A DNA stretch of 46,449 nt from Actinomycetota bacterium. Lineage in GTDB: Bacteria > Actinomycetota > CADDZG01 > JAHWKV01 > JAOPZY01. Below the pieces are notes generated by a model. That model searched no databases. It saw only the letters and a list, made by a program, of their open reading frames with translations, and was not told the DNA's origin. The stretch spans positions 1-46,449 of the forward strand of contig JAOPZY010000109.1 of assembly GCA_025963875.1 (NCBI GenBank), written 5' to 3'. Shown piece by piece: positions 6,850 to 30,285 of the stretch (the first letter of the stretch is position 1; the number at the start of each line of letters is the position of its first letter). The position numbers and the translations under genes were made by a program.

Positions 6850-9096
6850 TTAAGAGCCGCTGGCGGCGTCCCGCTCGATCGCGAGGCGGGTGAGGTCCAC
6901 CCGGGAGTCGATCTGGAGCTTGCGGAAGATCTGCCGGAGATGGAAGTCGATGGTGTGGGGCGACAGGAACATCTGCTCCGCCGCCTTCCGGTTGGTGAGG
7001 CCCTGCGCCACCAGGTCCGACACTGCACGCTCGGTCTCGGTCAGGCTGTCCCACCCGGAAACGGGCCGCTCCCGGCGCCGCCAGTGGCAGTGCCGCACGC
7101 CCATGGTGCGCAGCAGTGAACGCACGCGGGCCACGTCGTGCTCGGCCCCCAGCTCCTGGTAGGCGTTGAGCGCACGATCCAGGTGGAGATGTGCGGCGGC
7201 AGGGTCGTTGCGGTTCGACACCATCACCCCCGCGTCCTCGGTGGCCCGAGCCCTCGCCCAGGGACGGCGATGGGCAGTTGCGGCGCTGAGGAGCACGTCG
7301 ACGTCGCCCGTCAGCAGGCCTCGGGCATGGTCGGCCGCGGCGACGAGCGACGGGAGTTCCGGATTGTCGGCGGCCAGTTCGTCCGCACAGCGCGCGGACC
7401 GTTCTGCCACGGGCCGCTCGCCCGCGTCCAGCGCTGCCCTCACCGCCCAGGCAGCCGCCGTGGGGTCTTCGAGTTGGAGGCGCTTCCAGGACGTCACGTC
7501 CTCCATGGCGGCCATTTCCGCAACGACGGCAGCACAGCCCTCCGTTGCCTCCTGCACCTGCAACGCGGGCAGGACGCCGAGCCGCAGGCCGAAGACGCTC
7601 CAGTGGTACGAGCCACTCCCCCCGGCTGGCTGGACCTGGTCTGCGGCTCCGTGATGGTTGCCCTGGTGGAGCGCCACCGCTGCCAGGACCGAACGGGCTG
7701 CCGGCGCGAACAGCGTCGTCCGCAACTCTTCGGCCAGCGCCATGCCCTCCTCGGCGCCGGCTCTCGCGGCCTCTGCGGCCCCAGAGGCCAACAGAAGCTG
7801 CGAGCGCAGGACCGACGCACCGGCGAGCCAGAGGCCTCGGCCCCGGACCTCCAGCGCTGCAGTCGCGGTCTTGAGGAGTGCATCCGCTTCTTCGTGCTCC
7901 CCGATGGCAGTCAGCATCGAGGCGAGGAGAAGTTGGGGGATGGTCGTGCAGGGGGATTCGGGGTCCCGTCCGGCCCGCTCCGCGGCGGCTCGAGCCATAT
8001 CGATGGCATGCGCCGGCCGCCCCTCGTTCCAGTCCAGAACCGCGAGGGTGGTGAGCGCACCGGCAAGGGCCACATCCCCGTTCGACCGGCCGCTGCCTGC
8101 GAGCACCGACAGGGCCCGTTCCCGTGCGTCGCCGAAGGACTCCTGGGCCAGGAGACCGAGCTGGATCTGGAGCTCCGCGGCACCGTAGATCGTGTCGGGG
8201 AGCCCGCCGGTGCGGATCACGATTGCCAGCTCCTCGACGGACTCCGCGCCCAGGCCGTGGGCCAGGAGGTTCGATGCCACCCGAAGGCGGAGCTCTGCCG
8301 CCGCGAGGCCGGGCACCTGGCCGTCGGCGATGCCACGCCGTGCGAGTTCCAGGGCCTCCTCAGGCCGTTCCGCTGCGACGAGGGCATCCACCGTGGAGAT
8401 CCGCCGGGTCCAGCGGTGCGAGTCGGCGCCGTCGGTGAGGGCAAGCGCTCCGAGTGCCAGGTCCGCTGCCGCCTGGGCGAACCGGGGCATGAGCTCCTCT
8501 GTGGCCCGGTCCAGGTATGCCAGCGCCTGGTGGTCGCCGGGCCGCGTGCCCAGGATCAGGTGCACTGCGGCAACTGCGGGCGACCCGCCCCGGTCCAGCA
8601 GCTGCCTGCCGATGTGGCCGTGCAGGCCAACCCGCAGTGGCTCGGCCAGCCCCTCGTAGACCCCCCGCCGGAACTCCTCGTCGGCAAATTCGAACCGGCC
8701 GCGATCGGGTGTGAGGATGCCTTCCCGGATTACCTCCTCGACCGCCTGGAGCAGGTGACCGGCCGGCTGACCCAGGATGTCCGCCGCCTCGCTCACCGAG
8801 AACGAGCCGGCCATCATCGCGGCAACCTCCACCAGGCTGCGCGCCTGCGGCGAAAGCTCCCTCACCCTCGCGACGGGCTCGCTGCGTTCTTCCCTTCGAG
8901 CGAGGCTGTGTCCTTGCGTGACGGCCTGGTTGCCCAGCCGCTCCAGAACGACGACCTCTGCGCTCTCCACCCCCTCGAGCTTGGTGAGATCGACCGTGAG
9001 GCGGCCTAGCTGGACGGGCGGCGCCGCGTCGCCCAACGTGAGCACGTCCCTCGACGGGTCCTTGCTGAGTGCCGGATCGGCTTGGGTGAGTGCCAT
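6850..9096 (-). CDS. Large LuxR-family regulator (helical repeats plus C-terminal HTH; no obvious ATPase domain)
   Basis: C-terminal GWDSLTETE...GLTNR..AEQMFLSPHTIDFHLRQIFRKL. ATG 9096 after AGAGGAG. Confidence 0.88.
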   Translation of the reverse strand: MALTQADPALSKDPSRDVLTLGDAAPPVQLGRLTVDLTKLEGVESAEVVVLERLGNQAVTQGHSLARREERSEPVARVRELSPQARSLVEVAAMMAGSFSVSEAADILGQPAGHLLQAVEEVIREGILTPDRGRFEFADEEFRRGVYEGLAEPLRVGLHGHIGRQLLDRGGSPAVAAVHLILGTRPGDHQALAYLDRATEELMPRFAQAAADLALGALALTDGADSHRWTRRISTVDALVAAERPEEALELARRGIADGQVPGLAAAELRLRVASNLLAHGLGAESVEELAIVIRTGGLPDTIYGAAELQIQLGLLAQESFGDARERALSVLAGSGRSNGDVALAGALTTLAVLDWNEGRPAHAIDMARAAAERAGRDPESPCTTIPQLLLASMLTAIGEHEEADALLKTATAALEVRGRGLWLAGASVLRSQLLLASGAAEAARAGAEEGMALAEELRTTLFAPAARSVLAAVALHQGNHHGAADQVQPAGGSGSYHWSVFGLRLGVLPALQVQEATEGCAAVVAEMAAMEDVTSWKRLQLEDPTAAAWAVRAALDAGERPVAERSARCADELAADNPELPSLVAAADHARGLLTGDVDVLLSAATAHRRPWARARATEDAGVMVSNRNDPAAAHLHLDRALNAYQELGAEHDVARVRSLLRTMGVRHCHWRRRERPVSGWDSLTETERAVSDLVAQGLTNRKAAEQMFLSPHTIDFHLRQIFRKLQIDSRVDLTRLAIERDAASGS

Positions 9097-9211
9097 GCTG
9101 CCACTCTCTCCTCTGGTCACCACTAGGCGCTAGGTCCCGCCAGGACATATTTGGTGCCCTGCGTTTGTGCGCAGGCGCACTGGACGCCCCAGCGCTACTC
9201 GGTCACGACTC

Positions 9212-9847
9212 TCAGGACAGGTACTGATCCGGGGGGAGGTAGTAGGGATTCTCCAGGAGCTGGCCGCTCACGACCAGCTTCGGATGGGTACGCAGCAGGT
9301 CGAGGAGGATGCCGCCGCCGAAGTGGCCAAGGTCGTAGAGGCACACGATCGCCTGGGGGTACTGGGGAGCGAAACGGTTGAGCTCTGCTTCGTAGCGGAA
9401 GAACTCCTCGCGCTCGTCGGGGAGGTCGTGCAGCGCCCACGGCATCTCGCCGGTGAGCCGCCAGAAGGGGTAGTCCCCCTCGGCGGCGGCCACCGAGAGG
9501 GTCTCCTTCCAGAAGTCGAGGATGCCCCCGGTCGTGAAGGGCCTGGTTCGGAGGTAGGTCTCGGCGGCGGTGAAGAGCTCGAGCTGGCGCTGGGCCAGTG
9601 CAGACTTCGCGTCGATGTCGTCCCCCAGGTCCTCCAGCACCTGGGACGTCGGTGAGGAGTCCACGACGCAGAAACACTTGTGGCCCGCCTCGAGGCCGGC
9701 TCGCAGGAAGGGGAGCATGATCTGATCACGCTCCGCCTGGCTCACGTACAGTGCGCAGATGTGGTCGCCCGGCTCCATCGGTACGCCTGGGACGCCGAAT
9801 TCCAACGTGTCCGTCACGAGTGGATCGTTCACGAGTGGATCGTTCAT
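9212..9847 (-). CDS. Stand-alone MEDS (DcmR-type sensory) domain protein
   Basis: PGDHICALY, FLRAGLEAG, RLTGEMPW, YEAELN, CLYD, THP motifs typical of MEDS. Confidence 0.85.
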   Translation of the reverse strand: MNDPLVNDPLVTDTLEFGVPGVPMEPGDHICALYVSQAERDQIMLPFLRAGLEAGHKCFCVVDSSPTSQVLEDLGDDIDAKSALAQRQLELFTAAETYLRTRPFTTGGILDFWKETLSVAAAEGDYPFWRLTGEMPWALHDLPDEREEFFRYEAELNRFAPQYPQAIVCLYDLGHFGGGILLDLLRTHPKLVVSGQLLENPYYLPPDQYLS

Positions 9848-9968
9848 GGGGGCACACCTTTCTCAGGGAAGGGCCGCCTTCGGAGTCTACCGCTCTGGCT
9901 GTGATGTTTCGTCTAGGCTAGATTTCTCTTCTGCCGGAATACTGTTGTAACGGAAATCGGGGACGGCG

Positions 9969-11660
9969 TTGACCGACGCAGCTTCCCGGGAGTCGGAGGA
10001 CGACCTCCGGGACCAGCTTTCCAGCCTGCAGGGCGTGATGCTGCTCTCCCGGCTGATGACGGAGAGCGCCGACCGCGACCGCATCCTCGAGATGGTCGCC
10101 AACACGCTGCCGTCCCTCGGGAGGTGCCACCTCGAGGGGGTCTGGCTTTTCGATACCGGGTGGCGGGCGACCGCAGGGGCAGGCGCAGACCCTGCGGTCC
10201 GGGCCGACGTGGAATTGCAGGTGCGCGGCCTGGCTGTCGGTGGATCCCTTCGTGTCCCGGGAGCGGAATGGAGCTGGGCAGAACCCCTCCGAGGCCCCAC
10301 GGGCCCGCTCGGCTACGTCGTCGTCACCGCTGGCCAGGAGCCCTCGGGTGCCGAGCGGTTCCTGCTCCGCTCGCTTTCGCAGCAGCTCGGAATGGCGCTC
10401 ACGAACGCAGCGCTCCTGGCTCGCGAGCGGACCCAGTCGGAGAACCTGCGGACGGCGAACCGGGCCCTCGGCGAGTCGGTGGCGGCCCTGGAACGGAGCA
10501 CGGCCATCCACGAGCGCCTGACCCAGGTGGCGGCGTCCGGGCTGGGAGAGGCGGGGATCGCCGAGGCGGTGCACGACCTGACCGGCTACCCGATCGCGGT
10601 CGAGGACCGGCACGGCAACCTGCGGGCCTGGGCCGGGCCCGGCCGGCCGGACCCATATCCCAAGGATGACCCCCCGGCGCGCCAGGCGATGCTCCGACGG
10701 GTGGTGGCGGCCGATCGCCCCCTGCGGGAAGGGTCCCGGATCTACATTCTCGCCCGGGCACGGGAGGACGTCGTCGGGGTCATGGTCCTGATCGACCCGA
10801 GCGGGGTGGCGGGGGAGCGTGAACGGGTGGCCCTCGAGCACGGCGCCACCGTCCTCGCAATGGAACTGGCCCGGCTCCAGAGCCTCGCGGACACGGAACT
10901 GCGCCTCCGCCGCGACCTGGTGGAGGAGCTGCTCTCCGGTACGGACCAGGAGAGCGCCCTGGCCCGGGCCGCGGCCCTCCGCTACGACCTGCAGCGTCCG
11001 CACCGGGTCGTCGTGGTCGAACAGGCCAGCGGGGAGCCCGGCAACGGCCGTCTCTTCCGGGCAGTGAGGGCTGCGGCCCGGGATGCGGGCGTGGGGAGCC
11101 TGCTCGTGTCCCGGCTCGGCAGGGTCGTCGTGCTGTCCGACTCGCACAACAGCTCCTGGGGTGCGTTTCAGGCCGAGTTGCTTCATGACCTCGGCGGACC
11201 GGGATGCCGGGTGGGCGTCGGGGGCACGTGCGTCGCTGCGTCCGATTACCCTCGCTCCTACCGTGAGGCCGTGCTGGCCCTCCGGATCCAGCGCCTCTCC
11301 CGGGGCATGGAGCGGGTCACCTTCTTCGACGGTCTCGGCGTCTACCGCATCCTGGCAGACCTCAAAGACCTCTCCCTGGTGGAATCGTTCGTGCGGGTTT
11401 GGCTGGGGTCCCTGATCGACTACGACGAGCAGAAGGGCGCGGACCTCGTGATGACGCTCACCTCGTACCTGGAGCACGGCGGGAACTACGAGGCCACGGC
11501 CCACGCCCTCGCCGTCCACCGCAACACGCTCAAATACCGGCTGCAGCGCATCCGCGAGATCTCGGGCCGGGACCTCGGCGATCCCGACACGAATTTCAAC
11601 CTCCAGCTGGCGACACGCTCCTGGCGGATCCTGGCCGCCCTGAGGTCGCCCGCCGACTGA
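9969..11660 (+). CDS. PucR/CdaR-family regulator with N-terminal GAF-like domain
   Basis: C-terminal TLTSYLEHGGNYEATAHALAVHRNTLKYRLQRI HTH; TTG start. Confidence 0.9.
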   Translation: MTDAASRESEDDLRDQLSSLQGVMLLSRLMTESADRDRILEMVANTLPSLGRCHLEGVWLFDTGWRATAGAGADPAVRADVELQVRGLAVGGSLRVPGAEWSWAEPLRGPTGPLGYVVVTAGQEPSGAERFLLRSLSQQLGMALTNAALLARERTQSENLRTANRALGESVAALERSTAIHERLTQVAASGLGEAGIAEAVHDLTGYPIAVEDRHGNLRAWAGPGRPDPYPKDDPPARQAMLRRVVAADRPLREGSRIYILARAREDVVGVMVLIDPSGVAGERERVALEHGATVLAMELARLQSLADTELRLRRDLVEELLSGTDQESALARAAALRYDLQRPHRVVVVEQASGEPGNGRLFRAVRAAARDAGVGSLLVSRLGRVVVLSDSHNSSWGAFQAELLHDLGGPGCRVGVGGTCVAASDYPRSYREAVLALRIQRLSRGMERVTFFDGLGVYRILADLKDLSLVESFVRVWLGSLIDYDEQKGADLVMTLTSYLEHGGNYEATAHALAVHRNTLKYRLQRIREISGRDLGDPDTNFNLQLATRSWRILAALRSPAD

Positions 11661-11682
11661 CCCCGGGCGCATCGACGCCCGG

Positions 11683-12108
11683 TCAACTCCGGGCGACCGG
11701 GATCCTCTTGACGGAGCTTTCGGTCTCGGCGCCAATCGGGACCCGGATCTCCAGGATCCCGTCCTTGTAGGACGCCTTGATGTCCTCCTCCTTGACGCCG
11801 GGGGGCAGCGGGAGCGCCCGGACGAACTCTCCGTAGCGGAACTCCGAGCGGTACTCGTCGGTCCCCTTCTGCTCGTTCCGCTCCTCACGGTGTACCCGGA
11901 CCTGCAGCATTCCGTCGGACACGGTCAACTCCACGTCACGTTCGGGGTCGATGCCCGGCGTCTCGGAGCGGATCACAAGCTCGTCGCCGTTGCGGTATTC
12001 CTCCACCGGCAGCCACCCCGATGCGAGCCCCGACGGCTCTCCGTTGAAGAATCTGCGGAACAGCTCCGGCAGTTCCAGGCCTCCCGGGCCCCGGCGCACG
12101 ATTGCCAT
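11683..12108 (-). CDS. Hsp20/alpha-crystallin small heat-shock protein
   Basis: SEFRYGEFVRALPLP...IKASYKDGILEIRVP; RBS AGAGGAGG. Confidence 0.93.
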   Translation of the reverse strand: MAIVRRGPGGLELPELFRRFFNGEPSGLASGWLPVEEYRNGDELVIRSETPGIDPERDVELTVSDGMLQVRVHREERNEQKGTDEYRSEFRYGEFVRALPLPPGVKEEDIKASYKDGILEIRVPIGAETESSVKRIPVARS

Positions 12109-12167
12109 GGCGTTACCTCCTCTTGTCCTGGTTCGATGGTTCCGGTCTGTGCGTGATCCCGCTTTCG

Positions 12168-12219
12168 AGGTTAGGACGGGCCTGGGGACTCCACATCAGG
12201 CGTCTTCGTAGTTCCTCGG
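12168..12219 (-). promoter_or_regulatory. Shared box plus -10 element upstream of hsp20
   Basis: Minus strand GGAACTACGA-N7-TGAT-N21-TAACCT; same arrangement at 14438-14492. Confidence 0.5.
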
Positions 12220-12305
12220 GAACCCCGCGGCCAGCCCCCCCGGGCCTGGGATGAACCACGCGACCGCGAGATGTGGGGCGCCGGGACCGGCGCGAGCCTC
12301 CTCCC

Positions 12306-13085
12306 ATGGAGATCTCCGTCGAACTCGGCCACGCCGTGGGCCCTCCCGCGGTGGCCGTGGCCGCCTGCACCCTCCCGTCCGACCGGGAGGGCGGAGCGTC
12401 GGGGGACTGGCACGACGTGATCGCGCTGCCGAGCGGGGACGTGGCGGTGGTCGTCGGCGATGCGGCGGGCCACGGGGTGCAGGCCCGGCCCCTCAAGGAT
12501 GCGCTGCAGCGGGGTCTGCGGGGGATGGCGATGACCGGGACGGAGCCGTCCGAGCTCGTCAACGGCCTCGACAACGTCGTCGTCCCCGACCGGGACGGCT
12601 ACGCCACGGTTGTCTATGCAGTCGTGGAGCCGAAGCGTGGGGAGGTCGTCCTGACCAATGCCGGTCACCCCCCGCCACTGCTGGTCGGAAGTGGGGGATC
12701 GGCAAGGTTCCTCACCGACACCCTGGACCCTCCGCTCGGGGCGCCCAGGGCTCCGACGTCGCCCGAGGTCGGCCGGACACAGCTCCGGCCAGGCGACACG
12801 CTGGTGCTCTACACCGACGGGCTCATCGAGCGGCGCAGCCGCGATATCAGCACCGGCCTCGCGGGCCTGGCCGCCCTGGCGGCCCGCCTTGCCAGCGCTT
12901 CACTGGACGAGCTGTGCGCCCGGCTCCTTTGCATGGCCCTCGACGCCTCGGATCCCTCGGACGATCTGACGGTGATCGCGCTTCGCCTTCAGTACAACCC
13001 CTCCGCCGCTCCACCGCTCATCCCGACTCCCCTTCTGCCTGCGCCTGCCCCGATTGCCATCGCTCCCCTCGCTCCGTTCGGCTGA
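12306..13085 (+). CDS. Stand-alone PP2C/SpoIIE (RsbU-like) serine phosphatase
   Basis: SGDWHD, VGDAAGHG, NAGHPPP, LYTDGLIE, DDLT motifs. Start uncertain (12273 or 12306). Confidence 0.88.
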   Translation: MEISVELGHAVGPPAVAVAACTLPSDREGGASGDWHDVIALPSGDVAVVVGDAAGHGVQARPLKDALQRGLRGMAMTGTEPSELVNGLDNVVVPDRDGYATVVYAVVEPKRGEVVLTNAGHPPPLLVGSGGSARFLTDTLDPPLGAPRAPTSPEVGRTQLRPGDTLVLYTDGLIERRSRDISTGLAGLAALAARLASASLDELCARLLCMALDASDPSDDLTVIALRLQYNPSAAPPLIPTPLLPAPAPIAIAPLAPFG

Positions 13086-13093
13086 CGCGAAGC

Positions 13094-13309
13094 TCAACGG
13101 CGGGCGATCAGGTTCAGGACCAGCGTCAGGACCAGCGACAGCACGAGGCACGTGCCAAGCGGCGCATAGATGCGCACACTCCCCCGGGTCCACTGCAGGT
13201 CGCCGGGGAGGCGGCCGAGGCCGAGCCTTCCACCGGCAAGGAAGATGACCCCGATCAGCATGATGACGCCGCCCAGAGCGATCAGCCAGCGCCCGAGCTC
13301 CCGTTCCAT
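13094..13309 (-). CDS. DUF2905-family small membrane protein
   Basis: TM-LGRLPGDL..IYAPLGTCLVLS-TM pattern. Confidence 0.85.
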   Translation of the reverse strand: MERELGRWLIALGGVIMLIGVIFLAGGRLGLGRLPGDLQWTRGSVRIYAPLGTCLVLSLVLTLVLNLIARR

Positions 13310-13312
13310 CTT

Positions 13313-14428
13313 CTAGCCGACCACCTGGGCGGCCGAGTGAGGGACGTCGAACCGCAGGAAGGCCGCCACGGAGTGCTGCGAGAGGGGCGTGGGGGCCTGG
13401 ACGTGCTCGACCCGCCCGCTGGCGCCGATGACCGCAGCGCCCATCTCCTCGATCACATCCTGTGTGACCCGCAGGGGGCCGCCGCATCGCTGGCACGTTG
13501 CCCCCACCAGCCCGAGCCAGCCACACGCGTCGCAGGCGGATCCGCTGGCCCGGGCCTCCTCGTCGATCAGCAGGAACTGGACCGCCTCCTCGTTCACGGC
13601 AGCGAGGCACCACGGGATCCCTGCCGCTCCCAGGCCGCCGGTCGTCACCCGGTCGAGGATCTCCGCCACCAGCGATGCCTCCTCCGCGCGCTCGTAGCGG
13701 TCGACCACCGCCTCGGCGCAGCACCGGGCCTGCTCCGGGCCCATGGTCCGCGGATCGAAGGCGAACGTTCCGGCAACCCTGCCGCGAAGGTGGTGGGGCA
13801 CGAAGGGCAGGAAGGCTGCCACGGTCTCCTCGGGGCCTCCCACGAGGAGGAGCTCGGCCCGGGTGGCATGGATGAACTCGTCCGCGACGTCCGCCGTCTC
13901 GCGGAACAGCCGGTGCGCCGGCGACGGATCCCGTCCGACCGGCCGGCCCGGCTTGCCGGGCGTCACCACGATGGTCGCTCCCTCGAGCTCGCCCATGAAC
14001 AGCTCGTAGAGGCAGGCCTGCATCCGGTCCAGCACCACGAGGCAGTAGCGGCGGGACTCGTCGAGGAAGGCGAGGAGGGGCCGGAGGTAGGGCGTCGCAT
14101 CGACGACCGCCCGATCGCGCGCTCGTCGAGGGACGACGACCTCCTCGTAGAGCCCGGCCCGGTGACAGGCGAAGATCCCCACCGTCGACCCCTCGGGCGG
14201 GCCTCCCCGGGCAGCGAGGTCGAGGACCCTCGCCACGTCGGACAAGAGCGATCGACGCAAAGCCTGGCTCGGCTCGGCCTCCGCCTGCTCGAGAACCTCC
14301 CCGACCAGCGACTCCAGTTTCGTCCGCAACGCCGACGGCCCTCCGTCCACCCCCACATAGACGGACAGGACCGGGGCCCCCGAGGGCCGGAACTGCAGCA
14401 GGCGGTCGAAGATGTCCTGATCCACCAT
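13313..14428 (-). CDS. Bacterial aeRF1-like protein (baeRF10-like) with C-terminal Zn ribbon and no GGQ
   Basis: PVLSVYV, PYLRPLL..LDE..RY.LVVLDR, LLLVGG, AVNEEAVQFLL, CDACG..CQRCG, DVIEEM, AAFLRF match the three-domain eRF1/Pelota layout. Confidence 0.78.
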   Translation of the reverse strand: MVDQDIFDRLLQFRPSGAPVLSVYVGVDGGPSALRTKLESLVGEVLEQAEAEPSQALRRSLLSDVARVLDLAARGGPPEGSTVGIFACHRAGLYEEVVVPRRARDRAVVDATPYLRPLLAFLDESRRYCLVVLDRMQACLYELFMGELEGATIVVTPGKPGRPVGRDPSPAHRLFRETADVADEFIHATRAELLLVGGPEETVAAFLPFVPHHLRGRVAGTFAFDPRTMGPEQARCCAEAVVDRYERAEEASLVAEILDRVTTGGLGAAGIPWCLAAVNEEAVQFLLIDEEARASGSACDACGWLGLVGATCQRCGGPLRVTQDVIEEMGAAVIGASGRVEHVQAPTPLSQHSVAAFLRFDVPHSAAQVVG

Positions 14429-14437
14429 GGCCCGACC

Positions 14438-14492
14438 AGGCTAGTGCCGCCCACGCCACACCGGTATCACGAAGCCTCGTAGTTCCCCTCGG
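14438..14492 (-). promoter_or_regulatory. Shared box plus -10 element upstream of the baeRF gene
   Basis: Minus strand GGAACTACGA-N7-TGAT-N22-TAGCCT, ending 9 nt before ATG 14428. Confidence 0.5.
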
Positions 14493-14615
14493 TGCCTTCG
14501 GGGGACCCGGCGGAGCTCCACGCGACTACCACGCGACTGCGGGATGTCCCGCCCCCCCGAGGGGCGCGAGCCTGGGAGCGTCGACCCACCTGATCAGACG
14601 AGAAGGAGACACCCC

Positions 14616-15086
14616 ATGCTCATGCGCTTCGATCCCTTCCGAAATTTCGACTCCCTCGCTCAGATGCTGGCGCAGCGGGGTGGGCCGGCCGAGCAATCGC
14701 CCATCCCGATGGATGCCTACCGGGAGGGCGACCGGTTCATCGTCCACTTCGATCTCCCGGGCGTCGACCCGTCCAGCATCGACCTGACCGTCGAGAAGAA
14801 CGTCCTGACCGTGCGGGCGGAGCGGACGTGGCCGGCATCCGAGGGCCAGGAGGTCCTCGTGCGGGAGCGCCCCGAGGGAACCTTCGTCCGCCAGCTCTTC
14901 CTCGGCGAGGGACTGGACACCGAGCACGTCGAGGCCACCTACCACAACGGCGTCCTCACGCTCACCATCCCCGTTGCCGAGCAGGCCAAGCCTCGCAAGG
15001 TCCAGGTGACCGGCGGCGACAGCGAACAGCCGGTCGAGCCGAAGAGCGAAGCGGAGCAACCAGCGGAGGTGTCGAGCGCAGCCTGA
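14616..15086 (+). CDS. Hsp20/alpha-crystallin protein (18-kDa-antigen type)
   Basis: MLMRFDPFR, PMDAYR, FDLPGVD, ERPEGTFVRQL, ATYHNGVLTL; RBS AAGGAG. Confidence 0.93.
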   Translation: MLMRFDPFRNFDSLAQMLAQRGGPAEQSPIPMDAYREGDRFIVHFDLPGVDPSSIDLTVEKNVLTVRAERTWPASEGQEVLVRERPEGTFVRQLFLGEGLDTEHVEATYHNGVLTLTIPVAEQAKPRKVQVTGGDSEQPVEPKSEAEQPAEVSSAA

Positions 15087-15344
15087 TGCGGCTGTCCAGC
15101 TAAAGGAGTCGGAGACCTGCGGGAGCCGGCCAACTGCTTCCCCAGTCGGCCGATGTCCCCCGGAACGAGGCAAGAGGAAAAAGAGGACGGGGTTGCGTTG
15201 AGGGCCTACGGCACCAGTCCCACCCCGTGACAGGCCGAACCCACTTGACAGGGAGCCGGCAGCGGCGGTTTCCGATGCCAGTTTTTGATCGATGTGAGGA
15301 GTAAGGCAGGGCGAGCGAAGTACGACGACAGAAAGGAACGAGCC

Positions 15345-17249
15345 ATGGCGAAGGCAGTCGGGATCGACCTCGGGACCACCAACTCAGTGATCGCCGTCGT
15401 GGAGGGCGGGCAGCCCCGCGTCATCCCCAACGCCGAGGGTGCTCGCACCACGCCGTCGGTCGTGGCGTTCACGGAGCAGGGTGAGCGCCTCGTGGGCCAG
15501 CTGGCCCGGCGCCAGGCCATCCTCAATCCGAAGGCCACCATCTACTCGGCGAAGCGCTTCATCGGGCGGCGGTTCGACGAGGTCGAGAGCGAGCTGCACG
15601 CGGTCAGCTACGACGTCGTGCCCGGCCCGGACGGCGCGGTTCGCTTCCGCATCCGCGGGAAGCTCTACGCGCCAGAGGAGATCTCCGCTCTCGTGCTGCG
15701 CAAGCTCGCCGACGACGCCGCGAAGTTCCTCGGCGAGAAGGTCACCGAGGCCGTGATCACCGTCCCCGCCTACTTCAACGACGCCCAGCGCCAGGCGACC
15801 AAGGACGCCGGCCGTATCGCCGGGCTCGAGGTCCTCCGGATCATCAACGAGCCGACGGCGGCCGCCCTCGCCTACGGCCTGGACAAGAAGGGCAACGAGA
15901 CGGTCCTGGTCTTCGACCTCGGCGGTGGCACGTTCGACGTCAGCATCCTCGACGTGGGCGACGGGGTGGTCGAGGTTCGGGCGACCGCCGGCGACACGCA
16001 CCTCGGCGGCGACGACTTCGACCGCCGCATCGTCGACTGGCTGGCCGATCAGTTCCAGAAGGACAACGGGATCGACCTGCGCAAGGACCCCCAGGCTCTC
16101 CAGCGCCTCTTCGAGGCGGCCGAGAAGGCCAAGGTCGAGCTGTCGGCGGTGACGCAGACCACGATCAGCCTGCCCTTCATCACCGCAGACGCCAACGGCC
16201 CGAAGCACCTCAACGCCACGCTCATGCGCTCGACGTTCGAGCAGATCACTGCTGATCTCCTTGAGCGGTGCATGGGGCCCGTCCAGCAGGCTATGGCGGA
16301 CGCCAAGCTCACCGCAGACGACATCGACGAGGTGATCCTGGTCGGGGGAGCCACCCGCATGCCGGCGGTGCAGAACCTGGTCCGGCGCCTGACCGGCGGC
16401 AAGGAGCCCAACATGACCGTCAACCCCGACGAGGTCGTGGCCATCGGCGCCGCCATCCAAGCCGCGATCATCAAGGGCGACGTCCGCGACGTCCTGCTCC
16501 TCGACGTGAACCCGCTGTCGCTCGGGGTCGAGACCCTGGGCGGCGTCATGACCAAGGTGATCGACCGCAACACAACGATCCCCGCCCGCCGCACGGAGAC
16601 CTTCTCCACCGCCGAGGACAACCAGTCGGCGGTGGACGTCGTCGTGCTGCAGGGGGAGAGGGAGCGGGCCTCGGACAACCGGGTGCTCGGCCGCTTCCGG
16701 TTGGAGGGCATCCGCCCCGCACCCCGGGGCCAGCCCCAGGTCGAGGTGACGTACGACATCGACGCAAACGGGATCTTGAACGTCTCGGCCCGCGACAAGG
16801 ACACCGGCAAAGAGCAGCGGATCACCATCAGTGAGAGCTCCAACCTCGACAAGGGGGAGATCGAGCGCATGGTGCGCGACTCCGAGCAGCATCGCTCCGA
16901 GGACGCCGAGCTGCGGCAGGTCGTCGATGCCCGCAACGAGCTGGACTCGACGATCTACCGGGTGGAGCGCCGGCTTGCCGAGCTCGGCGACGCGGTGCCG
17001 GTGCATGAGAAAGGCAGGGCCGAGATGCTGCTCAACGACGCCCGCCAGGCGATCAAGGAGGAGGCGCCGCTCGAGCGGCTGCGCTCGCTCACCGCCGAGC
17101 TGCAGCAGATCTACCACAGCCTCGGCGCCGGCTCGGGGCAACCTCCGGGCGGCGGGGCACCGTATGGGGCCCCGGGAGGGGGCTCGGACGGCCGGGACGC
17201 CCCGGTGGACGACGACGACGTCATCGACGCCGAATTCACGGCGAGCTGA
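15345..17249 (+). CDS. dnaK: Molecular chaperone DnaK
   Basis: [32 protein letters not shown]; acidic tail DVIDAEF; RBS AAAGGA. Confidence 0.97.
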
Positions 17250-17251
17250 CG

Positions 17252-17842
17252 ATGGCCGACCAGACGATTCCTTCCCGCGGAGAGCCGCGGGAGGACCAGA
17301 GGACGCACCCCGACGAGGGGCCGGACACGGCTACGGACACGTCCCAGCGGGGCAACGGTCAGTCGGCCAGGGTGGCCGAGCTGTCTGCCCAGGTGGCAAC
17401 CCTGGACGACCGCTGGCGCCGTGCCGTCGCCGATCTCGAGAACCTGCGCAAGCGGATGGCCGTCGAGGTGGACCGGGAGCGGTCCTACGAGCGGAACCGG
17501 GCGGCCTCGGCGCTCCTACCCATCGTCGACAACCTCGACCTCGCGCTCGAGCACGCGGCTGCCGACCCCCGTTCCCTGATCCAGGGATTGCTTGCCGTCC
17601 GCGACCAGGCGGTGAACGCCCTGGCCATGCTGGGGTTCCCCCGCCGTGACGACCTCGGCGTCCATTTCGACCCGTCCCGCCACGAGGCGGTGGGTTCCGT
17701 CCCGGGGGCCGATGCGGCCCCCGGGACGGTGGTGGCAGTGGTGCGGCCGGGCTACGGAGAAGGCGACCGCCAGCTCCGCCCCGCAGCAGTCGTGGTCGCC
17801 ACCGGAGGGAGCTCCGGCGAGGCCGAGGAAGGTTCTGGGTGA
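17252..17842 (+). CDS. grpE: Nucleotide exchange factor GrpE
   Basis: ADLENLRKR, LLPIVDNLDLAL, FDPSRHEAV, RPGY..LRPA.V. Confidence 0.95.
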   Translation: MADQTIPSRGEPREDQRTHPDEGPDTATDTSQRGNGQSARVAELSAQVATLDDRWRRAVADLENLRKRMAVEVDRERSYERNRAASALLPIVDNLDLALEHAAADPRSLIQGLLAVRDQAVNALAMLGFPRRDDLGVHFDPSRHEAVGSVPGADAAPGTVVAVVRPGYGEGDRQLRPAAVVVATGGSSGEAEEGSG

Positions 17843-17848
17843 TGGGCG

Positions 17849-18874
17849 ATGGCAGAGCCCCGAGACTTCTACGAGGTCCTGGGCGTTCCCAGGACCGCCA
17901 GCCAGAAGGAGATCCAGCGCTCTTACCGCAAGCTGGCGCGGACGTACCACCCCGACGTCAACAAGGACCCGGCTGCCGAGGGCCGCTTCAAGGAGATCTC
18001 GGAGGCCTACGACGTGCTGTCCGACCCGGAGCAGCGACGTCGCTACGACACGTTCGGCCCGCAGTTCCGCCAGGTGCCGGAAGGGATGGATGCGGAGACC
18101 TGGCAGCGCGTGCGCTCCGGGGCAGGCCGGCGGGAGCCCTCGGGGCAGCGCGCCGGCGCCGGGCGGCCGGGCCAGCGGGAGGGGGAGAGTGTCTTCTTCA
18201 GCTCGGACTTCGGAGACGGGGACTTCAGCTTCGGCTCCGGGGACATCAACATCGAGGATCTGCTCGGGGGGATGTTCAGCCGATCCCGAGCCGGTGCCGG
18301 GGGTGGACCCGGCTTCGGGCGCGGGGTTGGCCCGACGCCGGGGGCGGATCAGGAGGCCGAGCTCACCCTGAGTGTCGAGGAGGCGTTCGCCGGCGGCCGG
18401 CGCACCGTGACCCTGTCGGCGCGCGGAGGGCCGCGGACGTTCGAGGTCAACATCCCGGCGGGCGTTGCGGACGGCCAGCGGATCCGGCTGGCCGGCCAGG
18501 GCGGCCAGGGCAGTGGCGGAGCCGCCCCTGGCGACCTCTACCTGAACGTCCGGCTGGCCCCGCATCCCCGCTACCGCGTCGAGGGCCGGGATATCACCGT
18601 GGAGTTGCGGCTGGCACCGTGGGAAGCGGCGCTCGGCGCCTCGGTCACCATCGAGGGGCCGGGGGGCGAGGCGAAACTGCGGGTGCCGCCGGGGACCTCC
18701 AGCGGGCGCCGGCTTCGGCTCAAGGGCCGCGGCCTGCCCAACCCCAAGGGCAAGCCCGGCGACCTGTACGCGGAAGCGAAGATCGTCGTGCCGCCACGGC
18801 TGGAGCCAAAGGAGCGCGAGCTCTTCGAGCAGCTTGCTTCCGTCTCCAGCTTCGACCCGAGGAGGCGCCGATGA
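17849..18874 (+). CDS. dnaJ: Class B J-domain protein (DnaJ/CbpA type, no zinc finger)
   Basis: J-domain with HPD, G/F-rich linker, C-terminal PGDLY repeats, no CxxCxGxG. Confidence 0.9.
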
Positions 18875-19287
18875 ACACCGCCCTCATCCGACCGCGTGCT
18901 GCCGGGAAGCGCCTCGACCTCGAGTCCTTCGCGGCAGCTGCGGGACTCCATCCGGAATTTGTTCTCCGGCTCGTGAGCCTGGGGCTCATCGAAGCCGGTT
19001 CGGGGTCCGCTCCACAAGGACGCCTTGAGGGGCGTCTGAGCCAGGACCCCGGCCAGGGCCCCGCAACGGGGTCCGGCCCGGGCGCGACCGGCGAGCTGTG
19101 GTTTTCGCCCGCCCAGCTCGCCGTCGCCGCCCGGATCCAGCGGCTGCGCTCCGGCCTGTCGCTCAACTATGCCGCGCTTGGCCTTGTCATCGACCTGCTC
19201 GACCGGGTGAGCGAGCTCGAGTCGGCCCTGAGGAAAGCCCAGAGAGGGGCCCAGAGAGGGGAGAGCGCGTGGACCCGAACCGTCTGA
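18871..19287 (+). CDS. cbpM: Chaperone modulator CbpM-like (MerR-like HTH)
   Basis: ATGA overlap with dnaJ stop; [17 protein letters not shown]...[26 protein letters not shown]. Confidence 0.8.
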
Positions 19288-21956
19288 CGACCAAGTCGCA
19301 GGAGGCGCTGCACGACGCCCAGACCCTGGCAATGGCCCGCGGTCACACCGAGGTCGACGGCGAGCACCTGCTCCTGGCACTGCTCGACCAGCCCGACGGG
19401 CTCGTCCCGCGCCTGCTCGCCGCGGCCGGGGCCGACCCCCCGCGCCTGCACCGCGACCTCGAGGAGGACCTCGCCCGGCGCCCCAGGGTGTCCGGACCGG
19501 GCGCCGCCCCGGGGCAGATCGCCGTCACCCAGCGCCTCTCCCGCCTCCTCGACGCCGCCGAGCGGGAGGCCAAGCGGCTGAAGGACGACTACGTCTCCGT
19601 CGAGCACATCCTGCTGGCGCTGCTGGACGAGGGGTCGGGGACCTCCGCGGGCCGCCGCCTCAAGGAGCAGGGCCTCTCCCGGGACGCCTTCCTGCAGGCC
19701 CTCACGGCCGTGCGCGGCAACCAGCGGGTCACCTCCGCCAGTCCCGAAGGGACCTACGAGGCCCTGGAGAAGTACGGTCGCGACTTGGTGGCCGACGCCC
19801 GCACCGGCAAGCTGGACCCGGTGATCGGGCGCGACGCCGAGATCCGCAGGGTCGTCCAGATCCTCTCCCGTAAGACCAAGAACAACCCCGTGCTCGTCGG
19901 CGACCCGGGTGTCGGCAAGACCGCCATCGTCGAGGGGCTCGCCCAGCGCATCGTGCGCGGCGACGTGCCCGAGGGCCTCAAGGACAGGACGATCTTCGCC
20001 CTGGACATGGGGTCGCTCGTCGCCGGGGCCAAGTACCGCGGCGAGTTCGAGGAACGCCTGAAGGCAGTCCTCAACGAGGTCCGGGGCGCCGAGGGGCGGA
20101 TCCTGCTCTTCATCGACGAGATCCACACCGTCGTGGGGGCCGGGGCGGCCGAGGGGGCGATGGACGCCGGCAACATGCTCAAGCCGATGCTGGCCCGTGG
20201 CGAGCTCCACATGATCGGCGCCACGACCCTCGACGAGTACCGGAAGCGCATCGAGAAGGACGCCGCCCTGGAGCGCCGCTTCCAGCCCGTCATGGTGGAC
20301 GAGCCCTCCGTCGAGGACGCCATCTCGATTCTCCGGGGCCTGCGGGAACGCCTCGAGGTCTTCCACGGTGTCGCGATCCAGGACGGTGCCCTCGTGGCGG
20401 CGGTCATCCTCTCGCACCGCTACATCTCCGATCGCTTCCTTCCCGACAAGGCCATCGACCTCGTCGACGAGGCGTGCGCAATGATCCGAACCGAGATCGA
20501 CTCGATGCCCGCCGAGCTCGACGAGCTCACCCGTCGGGTCATGCGCCTCGAGATCGAGGAGCGGGCGCTCGCCAAGGAGAAGGACCCCGCCAGCAAGGCC
20601 CGCCTCGAAGAGCTGCGCAAGGAGCTGGCCGACCTGCGGGCCGAGATGGGTGCCATGCGGGCGCAGTGGGAGGCCGAGCGCCAGGCGCTCCGCAAGGTGC
20701 AGGCCCTGCGGGAGGAGATCGAGCGCGTGCGCCAGGAGGCCGAGGAGGCCGAGCGCAACTACGACCTGAACCGGGCGGCCGAGCTGCGCCACGGCAAGCT
20801 CCCGGAGCTGGAGCGGCGACTGAAGGCCGAGGAGGCCCAGCACCTCGCCAAGCAGGGAGACCGCCGGCTACTGCGGGAGGTCGTCACCGAGGACGAGATC
20901 GCGCTGATCGTGTCGCGCTGGACCGGCATCCCGATCACCCGCCTCAAGGAGGGTGAGCGGGAGAAGCTGCTGCGCCTCGACGAGATCCTGCACGAGCGGA
21001 TCGTCGGCCAGGACGAGGCGGTGCGCCTCGTGGCGGACGCCGTCATCCGTGCCCGCTCCGGCATCAAGGATCCACGCCGGCCCATCGGGTCGTTCATCTT
21101 CCTCGGCCCCACCGGGGTCGGCAAGACCGAGCTGGCCAAGACGCTGGCGATGGCCCTGTTCGACTCCGAGGACTCCATGGTGCGCATCGACATGAGCGAG
21201 TACCAGGAGCGCCACACCGTCAGCCGGCTCGTCGGCGCCCCTCCCGGCTACATCGGCTACGAGGAGGGCGGCCAGCTGACCGAGGCGGTGCGGCGCAAGC
21301 CCTATTCGGTCGTGCTCTTCGACGAGGTGGAGAAGGCGCATCCGGACGTCTTCAACACGCTCCTGCAGGTGCTCGACGACGGGCGCCTCACCGACGCCCA
21401 GGGCAGGACCGTCGACTTCCGCAACACCGTGATCATCATGACGAGCAACGTCGGCTCGGAGTACCTCATCGACGGCGTGACGCCCCAGGGCGAGATCCGG
21501 GAGGACGCCAGGGCACGGGTGATGGCCGAGCTGCGCGGCCACTTCCGCCCGGAGTTCCTCAACCGCGTCGACGAGATCGTGCTCTTCAAGGCCCTCACGC
21601 TGCCGGAGATCGAGCACATCGTCGAGCTCATGTTCGGCGAGCTGCGAGCCCGCCTCGCCGACCGCCGGTTGAAGCTCGAGGTCACCGACCAGGCCCGCAG
21701 GTTCATCGCCCGGGAGGGCTACGACCCGGTGTACGGCGCTCGCCCGCTCCGCCGGTTCATCTCCCGGGAGGTCGAGACCCGCATCGGCCGGGCGCTCCTG
21801 GGCGGCGATGTCCACGACGGTGCGGTCATCGAGATCGACGTCGTCGGCGGCGAGCTGGTCGTCACCTATTCCAACCCCGAGCCGGCGCCAGCCGGCGAAG
21901 GTGCAGAAGCGGCGCAGGAGGAGGAGGCCGGCGACACCGAGTCGGCCACGGTCTAG
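19269..21956 (+). CDS. clpB: ATP-dependent disaggregase ClpB
   Basis: GTG start, [13 protein letters not shown]; two Walker A motifs ([16 protein letters not shown]); coiled-coil M domain; YGARPL. Confidence 0.97.
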
Positions 21957-21987: not shown

Positions 21988-22566
21988 ATGATGGGTCAAA
22001 TGGCAGTGGGAGATTGGCGGTGGATTGCACTCCGGGCAGTTGCGGCGTTCATTTTCGGCATCCTGGCGCTGGTGCTTCCGGGGCTGACGCTGGCGACGCT
22101 GGTGCTCATCTTCGGGGCCTTCGCCCTCGTCGACGGTCTCTTCACCCTGGGCCATGCCGTCACCAGGGGCAGGGGAAGCGGGTGGGGTGCGGTCTGGATG
22201 GGCTTGATGGGGCTCGCCGGGATCGGCGCCGGGATCGTGACCTTCTTCTGGCCGGGCATCACGGCCCTCGCCCTCCTCTACGTGATCGCCGCGTGGGCGC
22301 TCGTGACGGGGGTCTTCGAGATTGCCGCCGCCATCACCTTCCGCAAGGTGCTGAACCACGAGTGGCTCCTCGTCGTCGATGGCGTCTTGTCGCTCATCGT
22401 GGCGGGGATCCTGGTCTTCGCCCCGGTCACGGGGGCGCTCGCCATCACCTGGGCGATCGGCTTCTACGCCCTGTTCAGCTCCGGCGTGCTCGCAGCTCAG
22501 GCCTGGCGGCTTCGCAAGGTGGGCTCCCGCGGTCCTGCAGGGGGCTGGGCGCCGGCCGGTGCATAA
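21988..22566 (+). CDS. HdeD/DUF308 family membrane protein
   Basis: WRWIALRAVAAFIFGILALVLPG...WPGITALALLYVIAAWA; about 6 TM; RBS GGAGG. Confidence 0.88.
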   Translation: MMGQMAVGDWRWIALRAVAAFIFGILALVLPGLTLATLVLIFGAFALVDGLFTLGHAVTRGRGSGWGAVWMGLMGLAGIGAGIVTFFWPGITALALLYVIAAWALVTGVFEIAAAITFRKVLNHEWLLVVDGVLSLIVAGILVFAPVTGALAITWAIGFYALFSSGVLAAQAWRLRKVGSRGPAGGWAPAGA

Positions 22567-22593
22567 CCGGTACATCGAGTGAGAGGAGGGGAT

Positions 22594-23037
22594 ATGCCCG
22601 GGGCAGCGACGGTCGTGCGGTGCGAGAGATGCGGAACAAAAAACCGCGTGCCCGCCGCGGCCCCGGGTGTGCCCCGGTGCGCGAAATGCAAGGCTCCCCT
22701 GCCCTGGGTCGTCGAGGCAAACGACGAGAACTTCACCACCGTCGTCGAAGAATCGACGATCCCCGTCCTGGTCGACCTGTGGGCACCCTGGTGCGGTCCG
22801 TGCCGGAGGGTGAGCCCGGCCCTCGAGGAGCTGGCCCGCCGCTACGCCGGCTCGGTGAAGCTGGCGAAGGTCAACGTCGACACCTCGCCCCGCGTCTCGC
22901 AACGCTTCGGCGTCCAGGGCATCCCGACCATGCTCGTGATGAAGGGCAACGAGATCCTGGCCCGCCAGACGGGGGCCGCCCCCGAGCCGGTGCTCCGGGA
23001 CTGGCTGGCCAAGGTCCTGCAGCTCCCCGCCGCCTGA
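22594..23037 (+). CDS. trxC: Thioredoxin 2 type (N-terminal Zn finger plus WCGPC)
   Basis: CERCGTKNRVP...CAKC and WAPWCGPC; RBS GAGGAGG. Confidence 0.9.
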   Translation: MPGAATVVRCERCGTKNRVPAAAPGVPRCAKCKAPLPWVVEANDENFTTVVEESTIPVLVDLWAPWCGPCRRVSPALEELARRYAGSVKLAKVNVDTSPRVSQRFGVQGIPTMLVMKGNEILARQTGAAPEPVLRDWLAKVLQLPAA

Positions 23038-26681: not shown

Positions 26682-27530
26682 TCACCGTTCGCGCTGCGGC
26701 CTGAGCTCCGCCCCCAGAGCCGCGAGCAGGTAGAAACCCGCAGCGATCGCGATGACGGCGAAGCTCGGCGGGAGTTTCGGGGCCGCATAGCTGAGCGCCA
26801 GTCCCGCCCACATCGCCCCGAGGGCGAGGACCGCCGAGAGCCACATCGCCCGGAAGGGGCGCGTCGTCAGGCGCTGGGCGGCTCCCGCCGGGGCCGCGAC
26901 CAGGCCCAGCAGGAGCAGGGCGCCCACCACCTGCGTCGCCTCGGCGGCGGTCACGCCGGCCAGCGCGAGGAACCCGAGCCCCAGGGCGGTCACCGGTAGT
27001 CCACGGGAGCGGGCGACCTCCTCGTCGATCGTGGCGAACAGCAGGGGCCGTGCGATCAGGAGGAGCAGCCCCACGGTGGCGGCGCTGATGCCGGCCGCCG
27101 CAAGGGCGTGGCTGCGGCTCAGGCCGAAGACCGACCCGAAGAGCACCGTCACGCCCGCCGTGCTGTTGGACGTCGACCGGGATCTCGTGTAGAGCGTGAG
27201 GAACAGCACCCCGAGCCCGAGGATCCAGGCGAAGACGCTGCCGATGACCACGTCGTCCGGCCTGCCTCTGGGGCCGAGCAACCCCATGCCGAGCGCGACG
27301 GCCACCGTGGCCACGAACAGCCCCAGGCGGGCGTCGACCCCGAAGGCCAGGGCCGCCATGGCGCCCGCCACCGCGACGTGGGAGAGGGCGTCGGCCGTGA
27401 AGACCTGCGACCTGAGCACGAGGAAGTAGCCAGCCAGCCCGGCCGCGACCGCCACGGCGGAGCCCGCCACGAAGGCGTAGCGGACGAAGGGGTGCCCCAG
27501 CATGTGGGCGATGCCCGCCAGGGGGTTCAC
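26682..27530 (-). CDS. Metal (Zn/Mn) ABC transporter permease 2
   Basis: DALSHVA, LFGSV, D.EVA..RG, VVGALL; ZnuB/ABC-3 pattern. Confidence 0.9.
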   Translation of the reverse strand: MNPLAGIAHMLGHPFVRYAFVAGSAVAVAAGLAGYFLVLRSQVFTADALSHVAVAGAMAALAFGVDARLGLFVATVAVALGMGLLGPRGRPDDVVIGSVFAWILGLGVLFLTLYTRSRSTSNSTAGVTVLFGSVFGLSRSHALAAAGISAATVGLLLLIARPLLFATIDEEVARSRGLPVTALGLGFLALAGVTAAEATQVVGALLLLGLVAAPAGAAQRLTTRPFRAMWLSAVLALGAMWAGLALSYAAPKLPPSFAVIAIAAGFYLLAALGAELRPQRER

Positions 27531-30227: not shown

Positions 30228-30285
30228 GTCGAGAATTATAATAAGAACGATTCTCAAAGCAAGTGAGGGGCTTATGCTTAGGTCG
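30212..30285. promoter_or_regulatory. Divergent leaderless promoters with Zur/Fur-like boxes
   Basis: 7-1-7 box TAAGAAC-G-ATTCTCA (30242-30256); second partial box 30212-30226; -10 TATAAT (minus, 30235-30240) and TATGCT (plus, 30273-30278), each 7 nt from its ATG. Confidence 0.7.

Follow-up and report, generated by a model that had tools for sequence, protein, structure and literature searches.

Balon-type proteins constitute a third family, recognised recently, of factors for ribosome hibernation in bacteria, and only three proteins of this kind have been examined structurally. As described in the accessible text of the Balon paper (PMC10901736), Msmeg1130, Rv2629, and Balon sit in the ribosomal A site without depending on mRNA, keep the peptidyl-transferase centre inactive, and act in vitro as inhibitors of translation; Balon and Msmeg1130 were seen to accept EF-Tu(GDP) on the ribosome. 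The same text describes the M-domain loop of Balon as a 'lasso' around A2602 of the 23S rRNA, adds a bL27 trap and an N-domain HP motif in contact with the decoding centre, and places Balon genes of some phyla in stress operons which include Hsp20, DnaK, and DnaJ. Here we consider a gene for a 371-residue relative of these factors, located beside heat-shock chaperone genes on a 46,449-nucleotide stretch of actinobacterial DNA (contig JAOPZY010000109.1 of assembly GCA_025963875.1), hereafter the window. Reasoning from its characterised relatives, we think it probable that the gene encodes a non-catalytic bacterial aeRF1-clade protein (Pfam baeRF family 10) which acts, like Balon and Msmeg1130, as an A-site factor.

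The open reading frame (ORF) is intact, with an ATG start and a TAG stop, and its GC content at third codon positions (GC3) of 0.90, in a window of 69% GC, gives it the appearance of a real gene. Its product matches Pfam baeRF_family10 (PF18854) over residues 113–224 with 61.6 bits against a cut-off of 27.1. The same model was found in 64 of 64 homologues recovered by word search, and a profile search returned 12167 cluster representatives at E≤0.001, marking the family as a large one. An AlphaFold2 model of the window protein, built on 32 homologues (alignment A1), has a mean predicted local distance difference test score (pLDDT) of 87.8 and a predicted template modelling score of 0.74. Three domains are delimited, N (residues ~1–112), M (~113–262), and C (~263–371). 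Model, Foldseek comparison, and a ribbon of four cysteines (Cys4) together reproduce the family-10 architecture of a codon-binding-like N domain, an RNase H-fold M domain, and a Pelota C domain with a zinc-ribbon (ZnR) insert.

Comparison with the PDB places the protein nearest the hibernation factors. Foldseek gave 47 matches at E≤0.001, the top ones all being Balon homologues, aRF1/eRF1, or Pelota. The whole-chain template modelling score (TM) was 0.76 for ribosome-bound Msmeg1130 (8v9l_z/8v9j_z; 21% identity), 0.70 for P. urativorans Balon, and 0.69 for Rv2629, with 0.51 or less for aRF1/eRF1 and 0.45 or less for Pelota/Dom34. A single-sequence search with phmmer found Msmeg1130 (8v9j_z) at E 1.1e-4. 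The family profile matched Msmeg1130 at E 1.4e-38 over positions 5–377 of 384, Rv2629 and aRF1 (4af1) each at E 1.9e-18, and P. urativorans Balon at E 1.7e-9; Pelota aligned mainly over positions 172–309, with a weak C-terminal stretch and its N domain unmatched. A sequence-only reading which preceded this analysis had proposed an aeRF1-like protein devoid of GGQ and NIKS, and had likened it to the catalytically silent A-site factors Balon and Rv2629. The eRF1-like fold is present in the model and in the Foldseek matches, neither motif string occurs in the protein, and sequence, profile, and Foldseek searches alike return Msmeg1130, Rv2629, and Balon as the closest characterised relatives, so that both proposals are borne out.

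Curated family models refine this placement. Three NCBIfam 'ribosome hibernation factor' equivalogs cover the MSMEG_1130, Rv2629, and AOC03_06830 families, and all 32 members of alignment A1 match the three models, MSMEG_1130_fam best; as the best E is only 1.4e-38, these members lie well below the equivalog cut-offs. The aRF1/eRF1 equivalog TIGR03676 scores 27.6 bits on the window protein against a cut-off of 234.7. The window protein is therefore related to the characterised Balon homologues but distinct from them, with the MSMEG_1130 family as the nearest. Databases name such proteins 'release factor subunit 1'.

The most unusual part of the protein is the tip of its M domain. Between the strand at residues 147–155 and the helix at 170–189, where homologues align with a GG-containing loop, lies a trimmed Pro/Gly/Arg loop of 15 residues, T156–P170 (TPGKPGRPVGRDPSP). 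It contains neither GG nor Gln, and hence not the catalytic-loop glutamine associated with family 10; the alignment thus confirms the short loop that the sequence-only reading had seen at the catalytic position. The blocks covering this loop have pLDDT 61–66, the lowest in the model apart from the C-terminal tail. For comparison we assembled the window protein and 208 stored relatives of 300–520 residues (word-search matches plus the best 150 of a profile search), a set of 209 which is biased toward the query. Segment 153–172 spans 20 residues in the window protein and in the relatives P0001–P0003, and 23 in P0004; the commonest lengths in the set are 32 (87 sequences) and 29 (57). Only two sequences, both gapped in this region, have a shorter segment, and the window loop is the shortest among the 207 ungapped there. 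Within the set, GGxSQ occurs in 37 loops, GGQ in one, GGW followed by something else in 66, and another GG in 34, while 71 have no GG. In the helix after the loop, a column which is His in 189 of the 209 is Leu174 in the window protein and Leu also in P0001–P0005; R176 of the same helix is kept, in a column occupied by Arg in 96 sequences and Lys in 73.

These features bear directly on catalysis. An active peptidyl-tRNA hydrolase, as has been proposed for baeRF family 10, would free nascent chains from stalled ribosomes under stress, and Pfam family-10 membership, the conserved family-10 glutamine described in the available text of Burroughs and Aravind (2019), and the relatives with GGxSQ or GGQ could all be cited in its favour. 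The window loop, however, is without GG or Gln and runs 9–12 residues under the family modes, and 171 of the 209 relatives likewise have neither GGQ nor GGxSQ. We consider hydrolase activity of the window protein very improbable.

The sequence-only reading had allowed for a decayed allele, should close homologues all retain a longer, glutamine-containing loop. The short loop is shared by P0001–P0004, at 99, 97, 85, and 68% identity to the window protein, so that decay of one allele is not the explanation; members further away do have a longer loop, with GGxSQ in the 37 noted above, which makes the short form a derived loss. A FastTree phylogeny was computed from 70 rows (the window protein, 20 of the locus proteins introduced below, and 49 chosen proteins, without L019, L022, and the other stored proteins). 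In it the window protein clusters with P0003 (Shimodaira-Hasegawa-like support 95), next with P0004 (100), and after that with P0005 (99), and the whole cluster falls within Acidimicrobiia/Actinomycetota sequences that have 32-residue loops. P0005 has a long loop, yet its GG and His are already gone. The likely order of loss, a parsimony reading of a tree whose root was not inferred, begins with Gln in the wider clade, continues with GG and His, and ends with the deletion of 9–12 residues.

Conservation is uneven along the chain. When the protein is divided into seven segments, the loop is the least conserved in comparisons with P0003, P0004, and P0005 (73%, 60%, and 40% identity, respectively), and the six non-loop segments are 64–82% identical to those of P0004. 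This pattern fits a tip without a sequence-specific role in an otherwise maintained protein. At the N-domain tip (residues 46–62) there is no 'HP', and Gln55 stands where 97 of the 209 have His, in a column which may be that of the HP motif of Balon. The idea that both tips are trimmed was rejected, as the N-domain tip segment has 17 residues against a mode of 18.

Such losses might also mark a protein which left the ribosome once its tip was gone, and which is now either drifting or repurposed, for example as a zinc- or redox-sensing chaperone accessory acting through its four cysteines. The lineage has lost GG, the near-invariant His, and 9–12 loop residues, and Gln occupies the His column of the N-domain tip; DUF5335, the usual neighbour in related loci, was not found in the window, while thioredoxin-system genes occur in the window and near several relatives. 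A relic of this kind is difficult to reconcile with an intact ORF of GC3 0.90, with the 64–82% identity to P0004 outside the loop, with the retained Arg/Lys column at R176, or with a whole-chain fold predicted confidently in the ribosome-bound shape. Msmeg1130, moreover, binds ribosomes although it has no GG and carries Phe at the His column. We accord a relic or repurposed protein only a small chance.

If the window protein behaves as its solved relatives do, the three-domain chain would move into the ribosomal A site. The N domain would point toward the decoding centre without reading the mRNA, and the M domain toward the peptidyl-transferase centre, where hydrolysis of peptidyl-tRNA would be impossible. 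The zinc-ribbon C domain would be turned to the side on which factors bind and on which, in the case of Balon, EF-Tu docks. With the A site occupied, tRNA could not enter, and ribosomes would be left arrested and sheltered; the stepwise erosion of the tip would have produced a blunt plug. By analogy with the hibernation factors, ribosome binding and translation arrest may be expected of the window protein. Its position back-to-back with hsp20 and dnaK–clpB suggests stress-dependent expression and a role in heat or proteotoxic stress.

The same A site could be entered for a different purpose. A Pelota/Dom34-like rescue factor would act on ribosomes that had stalled on truncated mRNA or on mRNA damaged by heat, entering their empty A site, and its task would be non-catalytic splitting and recycling rather than storage. 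Pelota belongs to the same superfamily and shares the non-catalytic state, and a chaperone context would suit the clearance of stalled nascent chains. A role of this sort is proposed for baeRF-1 proteins in the available text of Burroughs and Aravind (2019), and that of a preprint (10.1101/2024.11.25.625233) notes the ribosome-rescue role of Balon as still open. Nevertheless, Msmeg1130 is nearer than Pelota by both fold and profile (TM 0.76 against 0.45 or less, with the N domain unmatched), neither the window nor 22 related loci yielded an ATPase or GTPase partner for splitting, and the solved relatives are described as holding peptidyl-tRNA, not resolving it. Rescue in the manner of Pelota therefore appears unlikely to us.

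Several considerations weigh against an A-site factor of the Balon/Msmeg1130 kind as well. Firstly, the three hibernation-factor equivalogs score far under their cut-offs on the window protein (52 against 480, 29.5 against 320, and 22.6 against 330 bits). Secondly, the loop is 10 residues shorter than that of Msmeg1130 in the phmmer alignment, and since the loop which forms the A2602 'lasso' in Balon is cut down here, binding near the peptidyl-transferase centre may differ or be weaker. Thirdly, in the available text of Burroughs and Aravind (2019) family 10 stands out among the baeRF families for having kept a conserved glutamine and as a possible hydrolase, so that the family-10 label alone does not imply a plug. 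The genomic setting raises further doubts. The link to chaperone genes is missing in 18 of the 22 related loci, and HPF/RaiA, the commonest neighbour of Balon, had no matches among 50 scanned ORFs of the window or 171 ORFs of those loci. The HspR-associated inverted repeat (HAIR), searched for by its consensus at ≤3 mismatches, matched at 4733 and 44275 (two matches against 0.72 expected) and nowhere near the chaperone genes; as no HspR-type operator was found near the baeRF gene either, heat induction is a guess from position only. Lastly, we found no experimental work on the window protein or on any family-10 member.

The C domain contains the four cysteines C299-x2-C302 and C312-x2-C315. 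All four are present in 134 of the 209 relatives and three of the four in 56 more, and on these counts the Cys4 ribbon is the norm of the family; it presumably binds zinc. The CxxC..CxxC ribbon reported in domain 3 by the sequence-only reading is thus real, but the 'Zn-ribbon baeRF subtype' built upon it is not new: the protein is a known family member with one unusual loop deletion. According to the available text of Burroughs and Aravind (2019), classical aeRF-1 carries a ZnR at the same site, and many baeRF families have a two-strand insert which is degenerate. Cysteines are seen at the ribbon of aRF1 (4af1) in the profile alignment, and Msmeg1130 aligns without them.

The features of the window, together with a recurrent neighbour in related loci, are collected in Table 1.

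Table 1. Positions of the baeRF gene, its sequence features, and its neighbours in the window, and of DUF5335 genes in related loci (prefix L).
Feature	Position	Strand	Basis or remark
baeRF-1 (Pfam family 10)/Balon-like three-domain protein gene	13313..14428	(-)	ORF, Pfam, AlphaFold2, Foldseek
Cys4 ribbon C299-x2-C302...C312-x2-C315, C (Pelota-like) domain	13484..13534	(-)	alignment
Codon for Leu174, family His column in helix after loop	13907..13909	(-)	alignment column, His in 189/209
Trimmed M-domain tip loop T156-P170	13919..13963	(-)	alignment, GGQ/GGxSQ position
DUF2905 small hydrophobic protein, 71 aa	13094..13309	(-)	Pfam PF11146, 72.8 bits
SpoIIE/PP2C-type phosphatase, convergent with DUF2905	12273..13085	(+)	Pfam SpoIIE, 146.1 bits
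Second hsp20, not adjacent to baeRF gene	11683..12108	(-)	Pfam HSP20, 66.2 bits
Divergent spacer, baeRF gene to hsp20, 187 nt	14429..14615		carries repeated element
hsp20, divergent neighbour	14616..15086	(+)	Pfam HSP20, 81.1 bits on ORF 14544-15086
dnaK	15345-17249	(+)	Pfam
grpE	17252-17842	(+)	Pfam
dnaJ without Zn-finger domain	17849-18874	(+)	Pfam, J and C-terminal domains
MerR_2 regulator, 138 aa	18871-19287	(+)	Pfam; 4-nt overlap with dnaJ
clpB	19269-21956	(+)	Pfam
DUF5335	L001:7623-7994, L002:1511-1882, L003:1800-2152, L008:7601-7978	same as baeRF	Pfam; L003 by tblastn
DUF5335	L009:2104-2475, L010:7366-7977, L012:7504-7989, L019:7626-7994	same as baeRF	Pfam

The sequence-only reading had the gene between two hsp20 genes and just upstream of dnaK–clpB. 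It does lie beside heat-shock chaperone genes; however, only one hsp20 is adjacent, the DUF2905 gene and the SpoIIE/PP2C phosphatase gene (+) separating the other, and the baeRF gene is directed away from the hsp20-dnaK-grpE-dnaJ-merR-clpB operon and stands outside it. The adjacent hsp20 starts at the ATG at 14616, with the ribosome-binding site GAAGGAGA ahead of it, and the phosphatase probably at the ATG at 12306. On the coding strand the junction TAG-AAG-ATG puts the DUF2905 start 3 nt past the baeRF stop, exactly as had been reported, and the two genes are probably co-transcribed. The dnaJ/MerR_2 pair (17849–19287) we take to be a CbpA/CbpM-like or HspR-like arrangement. Scans of 11600–15400 for sigma-70 promoters and for terminators returned none of either, three spacers searched for short inverted repeats contained no convincing example, and Rfam had no matches in 11500–15500 at E≤1.

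Directly past clpB, at 21988–23037, are genes for a DUF308 membrane protein, which we assume to be HdeD-like, and a thioredoxin. HdeD is among the neighbours of Balon genes named in the accessible text of the Balon paper (PMC10901736). Two gene groups, at 6850–11660 and 27527–30257, flank the chaperone island. One is a regulator cluster comprising a LuxR-type protein with a 757-residue ORF, a MEDS sensory domain protein, and a PucR-type regulator, and the other a ZnuABC-type metal uptake operon.

A collinear element of ~100 nt recurs in the same orientation in two divergent spacers of the window, once at 14475–14573 between the baeRF gene (-) and hsp20 (+), and once at 12204–12299 between hsp20 (-) and the SpoIIE phosphatase gene (+). 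Its block TCGTAGTTCC has three exact copies in the window, and seven at ≤1 mismatch where 1.4 would be expected. Block CCACGCGACYGCGRGATGT has two copies against 0.10 expected, with an additional tandem CCACGCGACT at 14518, and a third conserved block reads GGCGCGAGCCT. The element has no Rfam match, and blocks CCACGCGAC and TCGTAGTTCC were not found upstream of the baeRF gene in the 22 related loci. It is probably a duplicated control region.

These related loci were obtained by scanning one genome per species with a 14-sequence alignment (A2), and number 22, at 33–58% identity and nearly all from Actinomycetota metagenome-assembled genomes. ORFs of ≥45 residues within 3.5 kb were selected with a home-made GC3 filter, and 171 of them were scanned against Pfam; as several loci are short contigs, absences from them are soft. 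A chaperone gene lies within this distance in four loci (L003, L006, L013, and L018). There is an hsp20 near the baeRF gene in L013, hsp20 together with dnaK-grpE-dnaJ-clpB in L018, and in L006 a divergent hsp20 as in the window, 45% identical to the window hsp20. In the fourth, L003:1800–5355 of an Actinomycetota metagenome-assembled genome, genes for DUF5335, baeRF, GroES, and GroEL run head to tail on one strand. Within the clade of the window protein, the chaperone link is weak and occasional.

The GroES–GroEL pair of L003 represents a second and different chaperone linkage for the family.

The neighbourhood survey which the sequence-only reading had called for thus gave a divided answer, with hsp20/dnaK-type chaperone linkage in four of 22 loci and DUF2905 in none. 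Nor is the chaperone setting a novelty, having already been known for the family from the Hsp20, DnaK, and DnaJ neighbours listed in the Balon paper. DUF2905 had been put forward as a membrane partner, and its linkage does not recur: Pfam found it in none of the 22 loci among the 171 ORFs, and tblastn of the same loci at E≤1 produced just one 23-residue match (E 0.19, L011). Complex prediction for the baeRF protein (alignment A2) with DUF2905 returned 'no answer' (score 0.00), which speaks neither for nor against binding. According to the accessible text of one machine-learning study (PMC12553261), across bacterial genomes the DUF2905 domain correlates positively with optimal growth temperature, and DUF2905 may have its own logic in a heat-shock island, independent of the baeRF gene.

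The sole recurrent operon partner found among the 22 loci is DUF5335 (PF17269, ~123 residues), encoded immediately upstream and on the same strand in eight of them. Its AlphaFold2 model has a pLDDT of 80.5. Foldseek against the PDB gave no matches at E≤0.001, the best, at TM ~0.5, being YojF and HutX/PhuS-like proteins, and phmmer against the PDB found nothing at E<0.06. The candidate identity of DUF5335 as an HPF-like protein was rejected on these fold and sequence searches, and a full-text search of the literature did not find the family.

Some individual loci deserve mention. In L018 and L019 the baeRF gene has thioredoxin or thioredoxin-reductase-like genes nearby. The L012 contig (CAZJSY010000001.1) is titled 'uncultured Burkholderiales', yet its baeRF protein nests among Acidimicrobiia and the locus has 69% GC, pointing to mis-binning of the contig or to gene transfer. 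In L019 (8001–9136) tblastn finds the baeRF match in two pieces and there is no intact ORF, which may reflect a frameshift, a pseudogene, or a fault in the assembly.

Taken further than we would readily defend, family 10 may preserve the full path from hydrolase to plug, with GGxSQ members as hydrolases, GGW members having lost the glutamine, and the window lineage as the end state. The blunt form would then be an arrest factor dedicated to heat shock, with a duplicated control element driving its transcription back-to-back with that of hsp20. It would hold elongating ribosomes in place, leaving the peptidyl-tRNA untouched, while DnaK, ClpB, and Hsp20 clear the damage, and the Cys4 ribbon would serve as a zinc, redox, or thermal release switch. 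We offer this as a long shot.

Irrespective of that conjecture, the gene contributes a member of Acidimicrobiia type, drawn from the only baeRF family for which catalysis had been predicted as a possibility. It illustrates that the catalytic-loop motif is patchy in family 10 (GGxSQ or GGQ in 38 of 209), and that the loop can be deleted outright while the remainder of the protein is conserved. The lineage thereby offers a natural experiment on the amount of M-domain tip that an A-site plug requires. It also counsels against taking either 'release factor subunit 1' or 'peptidyl hydrolase' over from the name of the family. In practical terms the gain is modest, consisting of an improved annotation and a candidate for comparative biochemistry.

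Set beside the known systems, the window protein shares the three-domain aeRF1 fold with Msmeg1130 of Mycolicibacterium smegmatis (PDB 8v9j/8v9l), Rv2629, and Balon, and like these it has neither NIKS nor GGQ and a stress-gene neighbourhood. Msmeg1130, also from the Actinomycetota, gives a full-length profile match to its family and likewise has an M-domain loop without GG and no His at the family His column, where it carries Phe; the two differ in that they share only ~21% identity, the window loop is 10 residues shorter, and the Cys4 ribbon is intact in the window protein. Members of Pfam baeRF_family10 have the same N-M-C layout with a ZnR insert, but the family is highlighted for its catalytic-loop glutamine, whereas the window protein has neither GG nor Gln there. 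Pelota/Dom34 is a non-catalytic A-site factor of the same superfamily whose M and C domains align with those of the window protein; its N domain is, however, unmatched, its TM is 0.45 or less, and no Hbs1- or ABCE1-like partner lies near the window gene. With aRF1/eRF1 the protein has in common the fold, the domain order, and the zinc-ribbon site in the C domain, while GGQ and NIKS are found in those factors and not in the window protein, and the TM is 0.51 or less.

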